38,326 nucleotides of DNA, from the IMG/VR virus record IMGVR_UViG_3300006120_000006, positions 1 to 38,326 of that record. One strand, 5' to 3'. A model generated the notes under the pieces. It saw only the letters and a list, made by a program, of their open reading frames with translations, had not been told where the DNA came from and searched no databases. The DNA comes from a virus. Its lineage: Duplodnaviria > Caudoviricetes. The position numbers and the translations under genes are program-made. Of the stretch, positions 7,028-24,386 are shown in pieces (the first letter of the stretch is position 1; the number at the start of each line of letters is the position of its first letter).

Positions 7028-7711
7028 ATGTCCACAAAAATATTCAAAAGACCTATCGTAGACCGCACACAACTCGATAAAGAGCTTGAAAAAGCGATAT
7101 TCGAGAAGACTGCTGACTTGGAAAGGTTAGAGAATATCTTTAAGGACAAAATGGTACAACTGGAATCTGAGTACAATGCTTCAAAAGAGCAAAAGTCTAA
7201 AGATATAGCCGATCTGGAGAATGTCCTTATCTTTAAAAGACAGGAGCGTACTCAACTTGAAAGTCCTTTAATCCAAAGAGAGAAGGATATACAAAAAAGA
7301 GAGGAAGGTGTCTCTAAGCGAGAACAGGAAATATCTGCTAAAGAGCAATCTGCATTTGAGCGAGAGCTTAAAGCTGACAGATTGATATCTGATACAGAAG
7401 ATTTCCAAGATGTACTCGGAGACACTAAACTTGACCTTGATAAGCGTGAGCAACAAGTCCTTTACAAAGAAAAAGTCCTTAAAGAGCGAGAGAATGAATA
7501 TTTATTCAAAATAGATTCACTTCATTCGGAATATGCTAAAAGGGACATAGAAATAGCCTCAAAACTGGATTATCTCCGTGAGAGAGGTTACGAACTTGAT
7601 GATAAGGAAGCTCAACTCAAAGTCAAAGAAAAGGAATTGAACGATAAGGATAGACAGATTGCAGACAAATACGCAACATTAGAAATCACACTTAATCACT
7701 TAAAAAAATGA
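7028..7711 (+). CDS. Coiled-coil protein
   Basis: Heptad-rich, E/K-rich, 227 aa. Confidence 0.7.
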   Translation: MSTKIFKRPIVDRTQLDKELEKAIFEKTADLERLENIFKDKMVQLESEYNASKEQKSKDIADLENVLIFKRQERTQLESPLIQREKDIQKREEGVSKREQEISAKEQSAFERELKADRLISDTEDFQDVLGDTKLDLDKREQQVLYKEKVLKERENEYLFKIDSLHSEYAKRDIEIASKLDYLRERGYELDDKEAQLKVKEKELNDKDRQIADKYATLEITLNHLKK

Positions 7712-8004
7712 TACAAAGACAATCAATCAATACGAGAACAAATGGTGCTTCAAATAGCACTACAGCTCTCGCAGCGTTTGTTGATCGTAGATTCTTCTCG
7801 ATTCAGAATCTTGACACAGGCGCACTATATGTGAAGTTCGGGTCAGGCGCTACAACATCGAGCTACGACATCATTTTAAAAGGTGGTGCTGGTGCTGCTG
7901 ATGGTTCAGGTGGTGCAATCGTAGAAGCAGGAGAATGTGTTTATGGAGGTATTATAACGGTGGCTTCGTCGGGTACACCTAGTTATGTAGCATATGATAT
8001 GTAA
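7708..8004 (+). CDS. Small beta-sandwich structural protein
   Basis: RRFFSIQN..LYVKFG motif; ATGA-coupled. Confidence 0.65.
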   Translation: MIQRQSINTRTNGASNSTTALAAFVDRRFFSIQNLDTGALYVKFGSGATTSSYDIILKGGAGAADGSGGAIVEAGECVYGGIITVASSGTPSYVAYDM

Positions 8005-8009
8005 AAAAT

Positions 8010-8441
8010 ATGAAAACCGAAGAAGACGTACTAAAATATAATATTGCTCAACTCAAAGCAGAGGAACGAAACCTTACTATCGTTCTTCGTGGAATACAAT
8101 CAGAGATTCTTAATTTAACTGCTGATAAGAAAAAGGTCATTGACAGCACAGAAGCTCTGATAGCTGATAAACAGGCAGCCAGCGAGGAATATAACTCACT
8201 CGTAAAAAGAAATGAAGACATTAAAACACAAGTCGCAGAAGCGAACAAAGAGCTTGATTCAGTCAAGGTGGAATCTAATCGTATTCGTTCAGAAATTTCT
8301 GCTGAGCGTTCTAAACTTGATGTTGAAAGAAGTCAGTTGGAAAACGAAAAAGAAACACACCAAGTAGCAGTAGCAAATCTAGTAGAAGATAAAAGAGATT
8401 TTCAAACAAAGGTCGATAGACTTACTAAAGCCCTTGAATAA
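8010..8441 (+). CDS. Coiled-coil protein
   Basis: Heptad pattern, 143 aa. Confidence 0.7.
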   Translation: MKTEEDVLKYNIAQLKAEERNLTIVLRGIQSEILNLTADKKKVIDSTEALIADKQAASEEYNSLVKRNEDIKTQVAEANKELDSVKVESNRIRSEISAERSKLDVERSQLENEKETHQVAVANLVEDKRDFQTKVDRLTKALE

Positions 8442-8443
8442 AC

Positions 8444-8716
8444 ATGAGTACCGCTGCCAAAGATGTAAATAGCGTATCAACACTCATCTGTCCTTTGAAT
8501 ACAGACGGTGTAACTATACAGAGAGTGTATGTAGTTCCAACTACTCACGCACTTTGCATTTCTAATGGCACTACTGGAACTGATTATGGCTTCACTCGTG
8601 CTATCAAAGACGATAATGGTGTATCTGTTCTTGTGGGAGTATCTTCGGCAGATTTCACTACTCCTGTAGATATATATGCGGATAACAATGGGAATATCCT
8701 TACGAAAAGTACATAA
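8444..8716 (+). CDS. Small protein with two KDxNxV repeats
   Basis: AKDVNSVSTL and AIKDDNGVSVL; the same module begins the next gene. Confidence 0.65.
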   Translation: MSTAAKDVNSVSTLICPLNTDGVTIQRVYVVPTTHALCISNGTTGTDYGFTRAIKDDNGVSVLVGVSSADFTTPVDIYADNNGNILTKST

Positions 8717-8725
8717 ACAATCAAC

Positions 8726-9769
8726 ATGACAGCAAATCAAGCAATCAAAGATGTAAATAGCGTCGCAACACTCGTAGGAGTTTCAAATGTAGATTACGTT
8801 ACTCCTGTCACTGTTGCCGTAGACCCTGTTACTCATCGTGTTCTCACAAATACAGTCATAAGCGGTATTACTTCAATTAACGGAGACACGACCGCCGCAC
8901 AAATTATTGCTGGTGGAACAGGTATTTCAGTTGCCACAGTCGCTGGAACTACAACTATCACAAATACAGGTGGTGTAGGAACAGTGACTACCGTCTCAGT
9001 TGTTTCTGCGAATGGATTAGCAGGTACGGTTGCAAACGCTACGACAACTCCTGCGATAACATTAACGACAAGTATCACTGGCATCCTCAAAGGAAATGGT
9101 ACAGCTATTTCTGCCGCCACTGCAGATACCGATTACTCTACTCCAACAGGTATGGAGACATTTACCAATAAGACGTATGATACTGCTGGTACAGGAAATG
9201 TGCTTAAAATAAATGGAACACAGGTATCAGCCGTCACTGGTACTGGTTCGGTTGTGCTTGCAACTTCTCCTACTTTGACCACACCTACTCTTGGTGTCGC
9301 AACTGCTACAAGTGTGAACAAGGTTACAATTACTGCACCAGCTACGGGTTCAACTTTAACTATTCCTGATGGCGTTACTCTTACAGGCCCAGCTTCTTCG
9401 GGTACTGCAATGACACTTGGAAATGCCGAAACGGTTACAGGTGCAAAAACATTTCAAAAGATTATCAATACTGTTACAGCTATGGCGGCACAAGCTCTTG
9501 ACGGATCGACTGCAAATATATTTACTCGTACTTTGGCTGCTTCGGAAACATTCACACAATCAAACTTTACGACAGGTCAATGTTTCATGGTCGAGGTAAA
9601 ACAGGGTTCAGGTACAACGTATACAGTTACATGGTTCTCAGGAATTACATGGATTACGTCTGGTGGAACTGCACCTGTTCAGACAACTACATCAAATGGA
9701 TATACCTCTTACGGATTCCGTTGTACAGGTTCTAACACTTTTGAAGGATATTTAGTAGGAACAAACTAA
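8726..9769 (+). CDS. Tail/head fibre-like protein
   Basis: Thr/Gly-rich shaft motifs (GITSING, TFTNKT, TGTGSVVLATSPTL, ETVTGAKTF) plus C-terminal beta domain. Confidence 0.7.
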   Translation: MTANQAIKDVNSVATLVGVSNVDYVTPVTVAVDPVTHRVLTNTVISGITSINGDTTAAQIIAGGTGISVATVAGTTTITNTGGVGTVTTVSVVSANGLAGTVANATTTPAITLTTSITGILKGNGTAISAATADTDYSTPTGMETFTNKTYDTAGTGNVLKINGTQVSAVTGTGSVVLATSPTLTTPTLGVATATSVNKVTITAPATGSTLTIPDGVTLTGPASSGTAMTLGNAETVTGAKTFQKIINTVTAMAAQALDGSTANIFTRTLAASETFTQSNFTTGQCFMVEVKQGSGTTYTVTWFSGITWITSGGTAPVQTTTSNGYTSYGFRCTGSNTFEGYLVGTN

Positions 9770-9770
9770 T

Positions 9771-10466
9771 ATGTCTATCGCATACGACACATCAAATAAA
9801 ATAAGAGCAACAACTGGTTCAACCGTGACTTTAGCGCACACCGTTACTGGCACTAATACAGTTTTAGTTGTTGGAGTAGTATGTAGTGACTTAAGTTATG
9901 CTAACCTATATCCAACAGGTGTCACATATAATTCTGTATCAATGACAAATATAGGTAGTGTAATTGTCCCAAACTCCTTTAATACAATAAGAGTATATCT
10001 ATATGGTCTTGTTGCACCATCTACGGGAGCAAATAATTGCGTTGTTACATTGAATAAATCTACAGGTGGATTACAAACTGATGTATTTTCTGCTTCATAT
10101 ACTGGGTGTAGTCAAACGGGTCTACCTGATGCAAGAAATTCGTTTACAGCTACAGCAACAAGCATAACTGCAAATTTAACTACAGTAGCAAATAATTGTT
10201 GGTTGATTGGCGTTACTGGTACGAATGGAGGAGTAAACACATTTAGTGCTGGAACTAATGCCACGATGAGGCAGTCACTAGGCGTTGGATCATACGGTGG
10301 CGCTTCTGCCTTTTTCGATACAAACGGGCCACAAACTCCCGCTGGCTCAAATTCATTTACAGCTAATATAAGTGGAAGTGTCGATTTAGCCATGTATGCA
10401 ATATCTGTTGCCCCTTTCGTTATTCCGCCAGTTGCTAACGCAGGATTCTTTACTAATTTTATATAA
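9771..10466 (+). CDS. Fibre-tip/receptor-binding-like beta-sandwich protein
   Basis: MSIAYD start, VTYNSVSMT, C-terminal AGFFTNFI; follows the fibre gene. Confidence 0.6.
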   Translation: MSIAYDTSNKIRATTGSTVTLAHTVTGTNTVLVVGVVCSDLSYANLYPTGVTYNSVSMTNIGSVIVPNSFNTIRVYLYGLVAPSTGANNCVVTLNKSTGGLQTDVFSASYTGCSQTGLPDARNSFTATATSITANLTTVANNCWLIGVTGTNGGVNTFSAGTNATMRQSLGVGSYGGASAFFDTNGPQTPAGSNSFTANISGSVDLAMYAISVAPFVIPPVANAGFFTNFI

Positions 10467-15601: not shown

Positions 15602-17293
15602 ATGCCTCCAGTTGCACAATTCAGTCTACCGAATACGAAACAACAAGGGCAATCGTCTCCAGTAGATACAACTTCTAAAAATGATACAGGTATGCCACCT
15701 GTTGCGACTTTCAGTTTAGCAAATTCTAAACAGGGACAAGGTGGTGGTAGTTCCGAGAACTATGATAACGGAATGGGAATAATTAAAGGTGTAGGTAACT
15801 TCCTATTTCCTATCGTTGGAGACATAGCAGATGATATTTCAGGTAAAAGTAAAAAAACAGTATTGCAACAGGTTGGTGATACAGCTCTTTCTGCCCTACC
15901 ATTCATTCCAGGACTAGGAGAAGCAGGAGAGGCACTAAGAGGTGGTAAAGCTCTTGTAGAAGGCGCAGGCGCACTTTCTAAGGTCTCTGAAGGCACAGAT
16001 TTAGCTTCTAAGCTATATCAAGGAATAAAGACTGCTAACCCTATCGTAAAAGGTGCTGGAGTTGGTTATGGTGCTGGAGTAGCTTCTAACCTTTCACAAG
16101 GTAAAGATTTAGGTGAATCACTTACACCAAATACCAATACCATATTGGGTTCATTCTTAGGCGGAGCTGCGCCTGCTGTTACAGGTCTTATAAGTAAGGG
16201 TGTAAAAAGTCTGACTGACATAAGTCCCCAGATAGAAAATGAACTGACTAAGTTAGGAACTAAAGGTGATCCAAAAGATGTCGCATTATATGACCAATAT
16301 ATAAACGCAGCTAAAACTCATGCAGGGGATTTGCGTGCGCCTTCTCCATTAACTACTGCAGCAGATCATGTAGACAAGGCAGCACAAGTAGTTCAAAAGA
16401 AAACTGACTTAGCTGGTCAAGCTGTAGGTGCAGCTAAAGAAGCTTCTGCAAATGTGCCACTAAAACCATTAACTACAGTCGGTAATTCTCTATGGAAAGA
16501 TGCACAGGACAAGTATGGAATCAATTTATATACTGGTAAAAATGGAAAAATAATTGCTAAAAAAGTTGCTGGAAGTATGATAGACACTTCTCCTGCTGAC
16601 GTTTCTCGTATAACTAAAATAGCTCAACAGTTAAGTGATTTACACACATCAGGTGGTACTACAAAAAATGCTACTGAAGTTATGAGTAATCTAAATAATT
16701 TGGTAGACCATTCAAAATCTGATATCTATGGACATACAAATGATCCACTTGAAGGCTTGATAAAACATACTGCTGGAAACTTGAATGATATTATTCGTGA
16801 TAGTTCTCCTGAACTTGCAAAAGCTAACGATAAGTTTAGTGCCTTAAAGGATTTGCAAAATGAAATAAGCAATATGGCAGGTAAAAATCTTCAAAAGGGA
16901 GAATTGTTAATGCGTAGAGTATTTTCTGGTGATAAGAGTGGAGATGTTCAGGATTTCTTTAATAAGCTAAAAAGTGCTACTGGTATAGATTTAGTTAAAC
17001 ATGCTGTTATCGCTAAACATGCTATTCAAAGTGTGGGAAGTGATGCTGATAAAACATTACTTGAAAAAATGCTTGAAGAAGCACAAGGACATGGGGGTGG
17101 AAGTGCTACTATGCAGGCTCTTGGTGCAGGAAAAAATATAGCCAAAAAGTATATAGCTAATCCTGTAAAAGCAGGAAGAAATATGATTCAAGGGAAACAA
17201 GGTGTTATAAACGCTCTTGGAAAATCCGCTTATGGAATACCTGCAAAAGTCGGTGCAGAGGCTTCGAGATTAACTTCATTCTTAAATTTATGA
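15602..17293 (+). CDS. Putative DNA ejection protein
   Basis: Gly/Ala-rich hydrophobic segments, helical; duplicated N-terminal MPPVAxFSL. Confidence 0.6.
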   Translation: MPPVAQFSLPNTKQQGQSSPVDTTSKNDTGMPPVATFSLANSKQGQGGGSSENYDNGMGIIKGVGNFLFPIVGDIADDISGKSKKTVLQQVGDTALSALPFIPGLGEAGEALRGGKALVEGAGALSKVSEGTDLASKLYQGIKTANPIVKGAGVGYGAGVASNLSQGKDLGESLTPNTNTILGSFLGGAAPAVTGLISKGVKSLTDISPQIENELTKLGTKGDPKDVALYDQYINAAKTHAGDLRAPSPLTTAADHVDKAAQVVQKKTDLAGQAVGAAKEASANVPLKPLTTVGNSLWKDAQDKYGINLYTGKNGKIIAKKVAGSMIDTSPADVSRITKIAQQLSDLHTSGGTTKNATEVMSNLNNLVDHSKSDIYGHTNDPLEGLIKHTAGNLNDIIRDSSPELAKANDKFSALKDLQNEISNMAGKNLQKGELLMRRVFSGDKSGDVQDFFNKLKSATGIDLVKHAVIAKHAIQSVGSDADKTLLEKMLEEAQGHGGGSATMQALGAGKNIAKKYIANPVKAGRNMIQGKQGVINALGKSAYGIPAKVGAEASRLTSFLNL

Positions 17294-17538
17294 TAGAACC
17301 TGGTGTATCACAAGGTGGAGTACCCACCAAAATAGAAAATGCAAACGGCACGATAATAAATCCTGCTACTGGTTTTGCTATACCACCATACGATACTATC
17401 GTTCCTGATTATTCGGGTTCTACTGCTGATGTATATGTATATAAAATAGGAGGAATAAGCGGAACAACAGTTGGAACAATAACGATCTCATATACTGACT
17501 CGACTAAATCAGTAATGACATCGATTGTAAAAACATAA
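17290..17538 (+). CDS. Small tail-associated protein
   Basis: YVYKIGG.SGT.V.TITISY motif; ATGA-coupled. Confidence 0.65.
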   Translation: MIEPGVSQGGVPTKIENANGTIINPATGFAIPPYDTIVPDYSGSTADVYVYKIGGISGTTVGTITISYTDSTKSVMTSIVKT

Positions 17539-17541
17539 ACT

Positions 17542-20328
17542 ATGTCTATAAAATACATCTTCAATCCATTTACAGGAAACTTTGATGCCATTAATACTGG
17601 TGGAGGTTCCGACACCCCTTGGACAGTAGACCATAACGCCAATGGACATAACCTATACGACTCTACAGGCGACCTTAAACTAGACCAGAACGTAGGTACA
17701 CCTGGATTAAATGGTAGAGGTTATTCAATGAAAGCCCAAGACGTTACCTCTACTGCTGCCGACGCAACTGGTGGTCAATTCGTCTTGAAAGCTGGTGACT
17801 CACATAACTTTTCAGGTAGTGGACTTTCTAAAGGCGCAAAGATTACTTTGTATGGAGGCGGATATCAAGGTGCAGGTTATATGTTATTTGAGACTGGTGC
17901 TGGATACTCATCTGTCTTTCATGGATTCAATTTCAATAATAACTTCACTATTGACCACCAAGGTACACTCTCTAATCCTAATGGAGACCTTAACATTGAC
18001 CAAGGTTCAGGCGCAGGAAATAATCATAATATAGTCATTAAAGGAGGTACAAATACAACTGCCTATGGTGCTGGTGGAAGTCTGACTTTAAGCGGTGGAT
18101 ACAGTAACAATGGGGAAGGGTACACTTTTACCCCTGCTTCTATTTTCATGGCAGGTGGTTCATCTTATGGTGGTGATTTCATTCTTACTCCAGCGGCAGG
18201 AAATAACGGTTCAGGAAGTTTTATATTCGTTAATAGCAACATTTTTAGTATAGGTGGAAACACTGGTAATGTAACCTCTGGTCATAATGTTCTTGATAAT
18301 GGAGGTCAAACTCTTATCAATACAAAGACTCCAGTTCAAGTCGTTATAGGTACTTATACAGTCGGTAGCACATCTCCTAGTGGTACTACAGGAACAACTA
18401 TTACAAGACATCAAACCGATACTCCAAGTTCTTCATACTACAACACTTCTCTCTACCCAGTAGACATTGGAGCGATTACAGGTGTAGACGGATTTGGTGC
18501 AAATTTTACTGATGATGGTTCAGGGCACTTAATTGTTGCTGCACAAGACAAAACTGACAGCCCTACATCACTTAATTTCAGCACTTCACAATCTCCTGTT
18601 ATACCGGGAACAATTATTGGTTATGATGCTTATAATGTAAGTATTTCCGAGAATAGTTCTACTGGTGAAATAAGTTCAGATTTTCAGACGACTGGTAGTA
18701 CAGAGTATCCTTCAACATTAGATTTTAATACTTCACAATACCCTGTTGCACCGAGTTCTATTGGTGGCACAGATTATTATGGTGCGACAATTTCTGATGA
18801 CGGAAGTGGAAACATCGGAGTATCCACCGCACAGTCAACTTCATACTATCCAAGTTCGGCTGATTTTGACTTACCTAATACTCCAATTATTCCAGGCTCA
18901 ATAGGGGGTAATGATTCTTTTGGTGGTAGTGTTACTGATGATGGAGTCGGAAATTTAAACACGACACAGACCACCAATTCTCCGACTGAATATCCTTATT
19001 CTTCAAGCTATACTCTTTCTCACGGAAACATAACACCAGGTACAGTTTCAGGTACAGATAATTTTTGAAATTATTTTTATGATGATGGTAGTGGAAATCT
19101 TGTTGACTCTAATACTTATTATGGTGTAGGTGAAAGTCCATCTACTTACAGTTTCAATACATACTATTATCCTATTGCAACTTACTCCATCTCTGGAAGT
19201 GCAGATAATGGTGCTAACATTTATGATGATGGTGCAGGAAATGTTTATGAAGATATTGGAAGTACAGTAATAGGAACGATAGATTACGCTACTGGTGCAT
19301 ATACAGACGTATCAGGTGGAACGATACAGGTTCTTGGAATTGGTTATCATTATACATTTCCTAATCCTATTGCTTACATCGACTACACAACTGGTGCGGT
19401 TACCGACAACTCTGGAGGATTTATTTCAACAACCGCAATCGGTTATACCTTTTCAATCTCAAACCCTATTGCTTATATTGATTACTCTACAGGACACGTT
19501 TCTGATAATACAGGTGGAGTAGACCCTATCACATATATAGGTTATTCTTACGGCTATGTAGGAACGATTGCAACGATTGATTATTCAACTGGTGCGGTGA
19601 CTCATAGTATCTCCGACCAGATTTCTTCTATAACCTATTATTATGGCTACACAGGTGTTATTGGAACGATAAACTACAGCACAGGTTTTTTCTCAAGCTC
19701 ACAGAACGACCAGATAAGCTCAATCAGCTATCATTACGGGATTAACGGCATAATGGCGACGATCGATTATTCAACTGGTGCAGTCACAGATGCCACAAGT
19801 GGAGTGGATTACACACAATCAATCACTTATAACTCAACAATTACTCCTGGCGTATTTAACAACCAAGATGTCGGTTATACAATTTGGTCATACCGAGACA
19901 TATCAGGTTCAAGATTCTACGATTCTTCTGCTGGAACAAGTACAACTGTTAGTGATTACAGTGGCAGTAACTTCTATGTAGACCTTACTTGGTCAACAGG
20001 CACAGATGCTACAGGCTACGTCATTCAGAATACAACAAATGGTTATTATAAAGATGTCGGTGATGTCCTTACAGCAAATGATTTTGGAGATGGTGTAGGT
20101 TGGACAAGTGGAACATTCTCACCAGACCACATAAGCCCTTACGCAGTAACTACCGATTCAACAGATAAAGCCCAAGTAAATGGTGCAATGACAATCTTGA
20201 CATCATTTACTTTAGTCCCAAGTCCAACACCAACTAATCCAAGAGAGGGGATGGCATATGTCGATAATAGCTCATCACCTAGTCATTTTAAGATGTATCT
20301 TAATGGTGCATGGAACACAATTATTTAA
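17542..20328 (+). CDS. Large tail fibre/adhesin, 928 aa if the single in-frame TGA (19066-19068) is read through
   Basis: ORFs 17542..19068 and 19597..20328 share a frame; 19069-19596 has no stop and continues the repeats; N-terminal FNPFTGNFD motif. Confidence 0.8.
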
Positions 20329-20394: not shown

Positions 20395-20604
20395 ATGAAC
20401 AACACACAATTACAACTCGCAGTTACCAACGCTACTAATGCAGTCACAGTAGCTACAGCTCGTATCGCACAGTTAGATTCAACCCAAGCTTTCGCCACTG
20501 CACAGTACAATGCGAACCACGCTATCGCTACACAACAGTTAGCTACAGCACAGGCGACATTGGCTACAGCACAGGAAGCATTATCAAACGCACCAACAAA
20601 ATAA
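20395..20604 (+). CDS. Ala/Thr/Gln-rich coiled-coil protein
   Basis: ORF track; TGGTATAAT at 20366-20374 upstream. Confidence 0.65.
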   Translation: MNNTQLQLAVTNATNAVTVATARIAQLDSTQAFATAQYNANHAIATQQLATAQATLATAQEALSNAPTK

Positions 20605-23825: not shown

Positions 23826-24386
23826 TTAAAGAAAATCCTTAGTCTTAATTTTATACATATCTCCATTAGGACAATGCCATACAATCCCTTCGATACCACA
23901 GTCATTTCCGTACTTACTTTTTTGTTTTGGCAACCATTCTTTTAATTCATCAAAAGTAATCGGTACATTTTCAAATATAGGTGCTTGATTGAGGGTGAAG
24001 AATACTACAACATTTTTATCCAACTTTAATGGATTTCCTTGGATATTTAATCCAAGTGCTTCGCCACTCCATTCGCCATCAGGAATATCTGAAAAATCAG
24101 TACCTTTAACGCACGCCATAATATATTTGTCTTCACTTGATTCACTTGCATCAATATACCATGGTTCAATGATACCTTTTGCTTTTTCGAGACGAGACGG
24201 ATTGCGTCTTTTCTCTACTCGTACAACAATATGATTTCGTACAGTTACTCTGATATTTGTACCGTCTAATTTCTCTGTGGCAATAGCCTCTTTCAAAGTA
24301 TCCGCACGAAAACCTACACATGGTTCATTTTTAATTTTACCGTCACTATCCCAGTTTCTTTCAAAAATTGTTTTTATTTTTTTCAT
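23826..24386 (-). CDS. RNA ligase-like nucleotidyltransferase (Rnl family, minimal adenylation domain)
   Basis: Motif I ATEKLDGTN, motif III GEALG, motif IV EGIVW, motif V KIK. Confidence 0.8.
   Translation of the reverse strand: MKKIKTIFERNWDSDGKIKNEPCVGFRADTLKEAIATEKLDGTNIRVTVRNHIVVRVEKRRNPSRLEKAKGIIEPWYIDASESSEDKYIMACVKGTDFSDIPDGEWSGEALGLNIQGNPLKLDKNVVVFFTLNQAPIFENVPITFDELKEWLPKQKSKYGNDCGIEGIVWHCPNGDMYKIKTKDFL

Follow-up and report, generated by a model that had tools for sequence, protein, structure and literature searches.

A likely phage tail-fibre gene that most likely encodes one beta module nested in itself six levels deep

Introduction

How can six copies of the first half of a protein domain be followed, in a single chain, by six copies of its second half? 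This question is raised by a fibre-like gene at 17542-20328 (plus strand) of the virus record IMGVR_UViG_3300006120_000006, which is the window analysed here over its whole length of 38,326 bases. The gene codes for a protein of 928 residues (P0001), and its frame is interrupted by a TGA codon in this assembly only. An earlier reading of the window, made from its letters without database searches (referred to below as the sequence-only reading), had proposed that first halves (A) and second halves (B) of a small beta module are nested one inside another in this protein, and that the TGA is read through. The results presented below indicate that the gene is intact in the phage population, with no need of read-through, and that it most likely encodes a six-deep self-nesting of one module.

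Results

Six first halves precede six second halves

In a single reading frame, six A halves (18406-19257) are followed by six B halves (19264-19845), and every A precedes every B. Profiles of the two halves, for which 41 stretches of other proteins were the sole source, matched the 928-residue protein at exactly six A positions (27-57 bits) and six B positions (15-28 bits). Thus, profiles independent of this protein bear out the six tandem A halves and six tandem B halves that the sequence-only reading had counted. The best scores in 500 shuffles of the protein were 12.5 bits (A) and 8.6 bits (B), and 10 bits or more were reached by an A match in one shuffle and by a B match in none.

Both sets are numbered here in sequence order, which makes A6-B1, A5-B2, and so forth to A1-B6 the nested partners. 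The outermost first half, A1 (18406-18543), is followed by A2 (18544-18687), A3 (18691-18828), A4 (18832-18969), and A5 (18979-19113), all of them on the plus strand, as are the other features of the gene described below. A6 and B1 (19120-19365) make up the sole contiguous module, which would form the tip of an arm; this module aligns as one domain, with about 40% identity to the contiguous modules of two other proteins, P0002 and P0006. Then come B2 (19366-19464), B3 (19465-19560), B4 (19561-19653), B5 (19654-19746), and the outermost second half, B6 (19747-19845). A4 and B3 were placed by their profile matches; A1, A3, and B6 by profile matches and a complex model; and A2, B4, and B5 by a similarity test as well (both described below). 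That the innermost pair alone is contiguous had been stated in the sequence-only reading and was confirmed, as were the two outliers named there: A2, with ENSSTG, is the most divergent first half, and B5, with YSTGFFSS, the most divergent second half, and the two are partners, as nesting predicts.

Amino acid identity ranges from 24 to 48% among the A halves and from 33 to 61% among the B halves. Identity at the DNA level is 47-65%, which suggests that the copies are old. Neighbouring halves are alike (B2-B3 56%, B4-B5 58%, A2-A3 41%). The arm region as a whole is acidic, with only 2 Lys or Arg residues in 478 and a Tyr content of 9-12%; cysteines are absent from the protein.

The two halves form one contiguous domain in other proteins

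The module is a beta unit of about 80 residues that has no curated model in Pfam or NCBIfam and no name in the collections searched, which did not include the ESM Atlas. In P0002, the first homologue found, A and B are joined twice, each time within a fibre-like chain. A search of 1.84 billion representatives with the module profile yielded 135 proteins, and word searches brought more. The distance from a DDGxG hairpin to the neighbouring IDYxxG strand was 11-24 residues in 257 of 270 cases (153 proteins), and that of A6-B1 is 18 residues. The assumption of the sequence-only reading that A and B normally form one contiguous domain is thus valid for most of the relatives.

Carriers of the module include fibres, sheath proteins, baseplate-type proteins, a major head protein, and the flagellar hook protein FlgE. 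One inserted copy was found in the major head protein (phrog_138) of L024, L027, and L035, near 6000, and two tandem copies in the FlgE-type protein P0008 (residues 341-529). P0004 and P0005, each of 1,367 residues, contain about 11 tandem copies and are an un-nested counterpart of the arm. Eleven of 20 module-bearing proteins matched PHROG 6128 over the module. This group of unknown function, with a profile of 1200 positions, contains tandem copies of the module, but it is a whole-protein family and not a domain model, and P0001 does not match it.

A sequence search of the PDB with the module profile gave one chance match (E 0.74). When the model of A6-B1 was used in a fold search, the best match was the P1 capsid (9ukm_A, residues 197-300; Z 6.3, root-mean-square deviation 3.4 Å over 79 residues), and other matches were the necks of DT57C (8hqo_R) and of phage 812 (8q01_b) and T4 gp6 (3h2t_A), with Z scores of 4.8-5.7. 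These beta insertion domains of phage capsids, necks, and baseplates are compact beta domains like the module, but their identity to it is 8-15% and none is self-nested in the aligned range; since all Z scores are below 8, homology is not established, and the likeness may reflect a common arrangement only. Foldseek gave no match in the PDB at E 0.001 or better. Its 11 matches of that quality in BFVD all had template modelling scores below 0.1, were driven by unfolded parts, and were not used.

The numbers of A and B halves agree in relatives

Before counting, 16 identifiers were dropped: nine repetitive unrelated matches, the truncated self P0003, the unrelated P0162, and five members of the P0002 cluster. 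An automatic count with three short piece-profiles gave equal numbers of hairpins and B halves in only 42 of 149 proteins and was rejected, because its hairpin profile missed many clear copies. The count used instead rests on B-to-B spacing and on reading by eye. Among the 287 B-to-B gaps in the 148 proteins with a B match, 262 were longer than 60 residues, which corresponds to tandem whole modules, 16 were of 45 residues or less, and 9 were of 46-60 residues.

The 16 short gaps, in which B halves stand back to back, fell in 11 proteins, and in ten of these the sequences, read by eye, had the matching unpaired A halves upstream. A and B counts thus vary together, with P0106 as a possible exception. 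P0001 is the 6:6 case, eight proteins are 2:2 nests (P0026, P0027, P0028, P0036, P0046, P0057, P0067, and P0161), and the sheath protein P0091 has one split copy around three whole ones. By eye, all nine gaps of intermediate length read as balanced nests, located at a second loop that joins the PGS strand to the DDGxG hairpin; they fell into eight clusters (P0016, P0019, P0023, P0030, P0041/P0154, P0065, P0101, and P0110). P0101 has a foreign domain, too, in the first loop of its inner copy.

A locus search of viral contigs found no close relatives of P0001 or P0028. The two-level profile gave 13 loci, and no nest lay near the match in the nine that were read. Relatives of the module-bearing capsid protein had no locus in GTDB genomes, and the part of P0001 that follows the stop had none in GenBank phages. 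A DNA pattern for back-to-back B halves was absent from viral contigs; in metagenomes it occurred 21 times, twice in this phage and never in a new nest of the module. The corresponding pattern for A halves matched five viral loci, none of them related.

Structure models and the order of pairing

With 42 alignment rows, which covered the inner two levels and the host domain only, AlphaFold2 modelled residues about 490-640 (A5, A6, B1, and B2) at a predicted local distance difference test (pLDDT) score of 88-98; the values were about 88-97 over most of A5, 96-98 over A6 and B1, and 88-96 over B2. The spacing of strands was similar in both levels. The outer halves A1-A3 and B4-B6, submitted to a complex prediction as two chains, scored 0.58, the best of three controls being 0.01. 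In two of three runs both chains reached a pLDDT of 89-92, whereas either chain beside an unrelated protein reached 34-41. The runs share at least 8% of contacts, and the partner pLDDT is at least 29. Of 157 solved complexes, 116 attained the mark of this test, and of 215 mismatches, 2; with scores of 0.60 or less, it was attained by only 18 of the 157 complexes but by both mismatches. Halves of one split domain also tend to pass through likeness. The models thus give a confident fold for the inner two levels, in a monomer, and weak support for joint folding of the outer three.

Two pairings are fixed: A6-B1 by contiguity, and A5-B2 by the AlphaFold2 model together with the two-level relatives. 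The chain topology, the counts in homologues, and a similarity test lead us to infer the reverse order as a whole (A6-B1 to A1-B6). As the B halves adjoin without a linker, parallel pairing could not span a domain, and only the reverse order reaches. When the identity matrix of the A halves was compared with that of the B halves, the nested mapping ranked 5th of the 720 possible mappings (rho 0.74) and the parallel one 308th. Over 12 settings, the nested mapping ranked 6-137 and the parallel one 43-275; the nested one was ahead in 10 of the 12 and in the top 5% in 9.

Several observations weigh against the six-level nest. The similarity signal comes mostly from A2-B5, both of them outliers, and A3-B4, both of them central; the nested mapping falls to rank 137 in one setting, and the same test at the DNA level gave no signal, with the nested mapping at rank 493 of 720. 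Single-sequence AlphaFold2 of the whole protein was unusable (pLDDT 33), the outer four levels stayed below pLDDT 50 in the model with 42 rows, which had no alignment depth there, level A4-B3 was confident in neither model, and one of the three complex runs failed with a score of 0.00. No model yielded a list of contacts, so that the pairing order was not seen directly. The interpretation given in the sequence-only reading is supported by the contiguous A+B domain of other proteins, the balanced counts, the modelled inner two levels, and the two outliers; for the outer pairs the order is predicted. As for the relatives, P0106 has three B halves against one whole A and one hairpin, the gene call starting inside that hairpin. 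Depths of 1, 2, and 6 levels were seen among the relatives found, and none of 3-5. In a fibre unrelated to this one (L007, L017), IDYxTG hairpins stand in tandem and no A halves accompany them. An archaeal-type surface protein (L003, 1685-3100 as oriented, and L004) has a module of similar appearance with two first and four second halves, the latter seemingly a pair that was duplicated, whether in nature or by misassembly.

The nest appears to interrupt a host domain that itself splits a probable shaft repeat

The sequence-only reading had placed the nest inside an Fn3-like domain that itself splits a fibre-shaft motif. The main part of this host domain, a beta-sandwich of Ig/Fn3-like type, comprises residues 772-862 (19855-20127). 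It is homologous to the stretch that follows the two-level nest of P0028 (E 1.4e-6) and to a domain that runs uninterrupted in P0041/P0154 (E 3e-6 to 5e-6). A putative N-terminal piece of the sandwich, recognised by eye and not confidently modelled, comprises residues 265-288 (18334-18405); a Y-[TA]-V-[GA]-[SD] strand stands ahead of the nest, or in the matching place, in P0001, P0028, and P0154, again by eye. Because the domain is homologous in P0041/P0154, P0028, and P0001, one host domain occurs with no, two, or six levels of nesting. The placement of the nest within a host is thus supported by its uninterrupted form; the Fn3 label is weak: the host was modelled at pLDDT 42-64, its Z scores to Ig/Fn3-type chains were 3.2-3.6, and it has no match in Pfam.

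The shaft repeat VGIGTxxPxxxLxVxG is contiguous in six fetched proteins. Residues 255-264 (18304-18333) and 870-881 (20149-20184) resemble, by eye, its first and second halves, respectively, and would thus be one repeat split by the host domain. The C-terminal fibre-end motif (20221-20328) is common to P0028 (E 3.4e-5).

Discussion

A self-nested arm and its possible origin

In the six-deep self-nesting that we favour, each copy would be inserted where the preceding copy has the loop from its DDGxG hairpin to its IDYxTG strand. From the shaft, the chain would pass into the host sandwich and outward through the six first halves; the tip domain would be its turning point, and the six second halves its way back, so that both ends would lie at the base and the shaft would be undisturbed. 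The resulting rod of six domains would likely project sideways from the tail-fibre shaft. To judge from its shaft motif, the fibre may be a trimer; with each rod emerging from an Ig/Fn3-like domain set into the shaft repeat, such a trimer would carry three arms. Each may be roughly 15 nm long, which is a guess from the 150 Å of seven domains in the Si3 arm discussed below. The acidic, Tyr-rich composition suits an extracellular binding or spacer surface, and the arm would most likely serve in adhesion to, or reach through, the surface of the host. Nothing suggests the telescoping motion that had been imagined for it.

The nest could have begun when a whole copy entered its own loop by non-homologous insertion, and could then have grown by off-register double crossovers, one in A and one in B; we give this route as a whole about an even chance. 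A double crossover would add both halves in one step, so that their counts stay equal, and the ERF annealing protein and YqaJ exonuclease of the phage could carry out such events. Insertion of whole domains at the module loop is seen in P0091 and P0101. That the A block and the B block were instead duplicated separately in tandem, with selection keeping the balanced products, seems rather unlikely to us, even though the resemblance of neighbouring halves would fit such a history, and so would DNA without correlated history, in which case the correlation at the protein level could be contact co-evolution; P0106 could then be one of the unbalanced states. Separate duplications would require unfolded intermediates at each step; moreover, whole modules are seen inserted at two loops, and in P0091 and P0101 the loop of the nest holds a foreign domain or several domains.

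More tentatively, the module may be a self-inserting extender of virion surfaces (fibres, capsid, sheath, and baseplate) and of a flagellar hook, with two permissive loops. Lengthened by one-step off-register recombination, it could form rods for contact with the host, tunable in length and with both ends at the base, and this could be a general route to deep nesting.

Other folds of the twelve halves

The halves might also pair between chains, the A of one chain with the B of a neighbour in a domain-swapped trimer, which would give one thick braided stalk and not three arms. Si3 domains are described as exchanging elements (PMC11515920), and our A and B blocks folded as separate chains, so that pairing in trans is possible in the model. 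Nevertheless, we regard a swap as improbable, as two levels are modelled with high confidence within one chain, and the occurrence of single modules and two-level nests in hosts as different as a capsid protein and sheaths suggests a self-contained unit.

That the twelve halves form two separate arrays, a solenoid of A halves and a beta-hairpin shaft of B halves, with equal numbers by chance, is more improbable still. The hairpins without A halves in L007 and L017 and the unbalanced P0106 and L003/L004 speak for such arrays. Against them stand the one-domain form of A+B elsewhere, the balance in ten of the 11 proteins with back-to-back B halves, the confident model of two levels, and the rise in pLDDT of the outer half-chains when they are together in two of three runs.

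The in-frame TGA

The sole TGA in the frame of the gene is codon 509 (19066-19068), inside A5, and appears to be a minor allele or an assembly error of GGA (Gly). Seven sequencing runs (X1-X7) were examined, X8-X11 having small shares only. Base 19066 was G, giving GGA, in all four that cover it (X1, X3, X4, and X5); X2 has a contig break at this base, and X6 and X7 do not cover it. X1 may be the sample from which this DNA comes. Gly also occupies the matching column of the other A halves, with the exception of A2. The intact 928-residue sequence with Gly is recorded on two contigs in the protein collection, as are two broken pieces of the protein from a 38,353-base record that carries the TGA. 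For other genes of the phage TGA is an ordinary stop, for example, in ATGA overlaps. The G of the covering runs, the intact record, and the use of TGA as a stop elsewhere indicate that the gene is intact in nature without recoding. The read-through assumed in the sequence-only reading is therefore not needed, and recoding of TGA as Gly or programmed read-through was rejected. A pseudogene, or a read-through or recoded gene, whose nest is not made or made at a low level, can hardly be credited on these grounds, even though the window and its 38,353-base record have the TGA and the break in X2 may mean that the T allele occurs at some frequency.

Run X5 also contains a related strain with 16 substitutions in 84 bases (19066-19149) at the A5-A6 junction, about seven of which change residues, and none in the flanking 270 bases. 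The cluster, which a single contig of depth 4 shows, has the look of a patch introduced by recombination close to the arm tip.

Comparison with known nested proteins

The closest parallel in architecture is Si3, an insertion in the beta' subunit of cyanobacterial RNA polymerase. It is described as eight SBHM domains, four continuous and four discontinuous, with a length of 150 Å for seven (PMC10895346), and its HABAS domains as inserted into one another (PMC11515920). A 2026 survey of 2.7 million classified domains picks cyanobacterial RNA polymerase, with six levels, as its prime example of deep nesting (PMC13114784). Both Si3 and the fibre have copies of a small beta domain inserted in each other, a chain that runs out and back, and an elongated arm. 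In the fibre, all A halves precede all B halves with only the innermost pair contiguous, A+B folds as a contiguous domain, and the halves are gained or lost together. Nevertheless, Si3 is built of the HABAS family and the fibre module appears to belong to another sequence family; Si3 is branched, with a mix of continuous and discontinuous domains, whereas the fibre nest is one unbranched series at one loop; and Si3 is a solved arm of an enzyme, whereas the fibre nest is predicted, in a virion protein. No Pfam or PDB sequence match linked the module to SBHM or HABAS, and no such chain was among the 50 matches listed in either VIA search. The fibre thus resembles Si3 in architecture and is not assigned to the SBHM/HABAS family.

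Contractile tail sheath proteins are described as having unlike domains nested in Russian-doll fashion, two to four deep (PMC6088184, PMC9230969). They are, like the fibre, phage structural proteins with nested domains and a returning chain, and the module itself occurs in the sheaths P0016, P0023, and P0091, even nested. In contrast to the unlike domains of sheaths, the fibre has one module in itself, six deep, in a phage in which no sheath gene was found. The DysF domain of ferlins is reported to be nested in a copy of itself, two deep (PMC3898210), but it is part of a eukaryotic membrane protein, is unrelated in sequence, and has two levels only. No self-nested domain in a phage fibre was found in the literature searched, most subscription papers and supplements being outside it.

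Recursive self-nesting has thus already been published for Si3, which tempers the surprise; new here are another module and its place in a phage fibre, which would equal the six-level depth of Si3 with one module at one loop. The relatives provide a natural series, namely the host alone, one module, two levels, and six levels, together with a second nesting site. With this series it becomes testable how domains can fold when as many as 450 residues separate their halves, and by what steps a nest grows if intermediates with unequal halves are to be avoided. Because both termini of such a rod lie at its base, it can be inserted into a fibre, a capsid, or a hook and leave the recipient protein unbroken, a property of use in protein design. 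Profile searches miss such proteins, as neither Pfam nor NCBIfam has a model of the module, and its sequence is split.

Genome context and neighbouring genes

The window comprises a whole virus record and is a complete podophage-like genome of 38,326 bases with terminal repeats. Matches to Pfam and PHROG families identify a P22-like portal, a major head protein, an SU10-type adaptor, the terminase subunits, and a chaperonin, as well as the ERF annealing protein and YqaJ exonuclease; family searches found no sheath or tail-tube family among the window proteins. The fibre gene is carried by 11 sequencing runs, all of them freshwater metagenomes. The top of six GenBank matches of the head protein is that of a TM7 (Saccharibacteria) phage (29% identity over 99%), which has a similar genome size and also a chaperonin. 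This is a weak hint that the host might belong to the Patescibacteria.

Podophage fibre genes usually sit after the tail genes and before the lysis genes. The gene at 17542-20328 lies 3' of the adaptor, a nozzle-like gene, and two large genes, and 5' of lysis-like genes, which we take, from their motifs, to be holin-like and peptidase-like; it thus stands between the tail and lysis genes of a podophage-type genome and is likely a tail-fibre gene. P0001 has no match in Pfam, PHROGs, or NCBIfam. Its relative P0026 matches phrog_28766, a tail fiber protein, outside the module (E 8e-10); P0001 itself matches no annotated fibre. Directly upstream, an 82-residue gene (17290-17538, plus strand; phrog_26903, unknown function, E 1.8e-9) might, judging from position, code for a fibre partner. 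Directly downstream, a gene for a 69-residue, Ala/Thr/Gln-rich, coiled-coil-like protein (20395-20604) could, as a guess, encode a fibre chaperone, and the GroEL-type chaperonin of the phage (33888-35414) might aid the folding of the long fibre.

Small to middle-sized genes with fibre- or minor-tail-like sequence are located between the head and adaptor genes (7708-10466). Those at 8444-8716 and 8726-9769 have similar N-termini, and that at 9771-10466 matches phrog_553 and phrog_2106. Additionally, this small DNA phage has an RNA ligase-like gene at 23826-24386 on the minus strand (Pfam RLIG1, E 3e-11).

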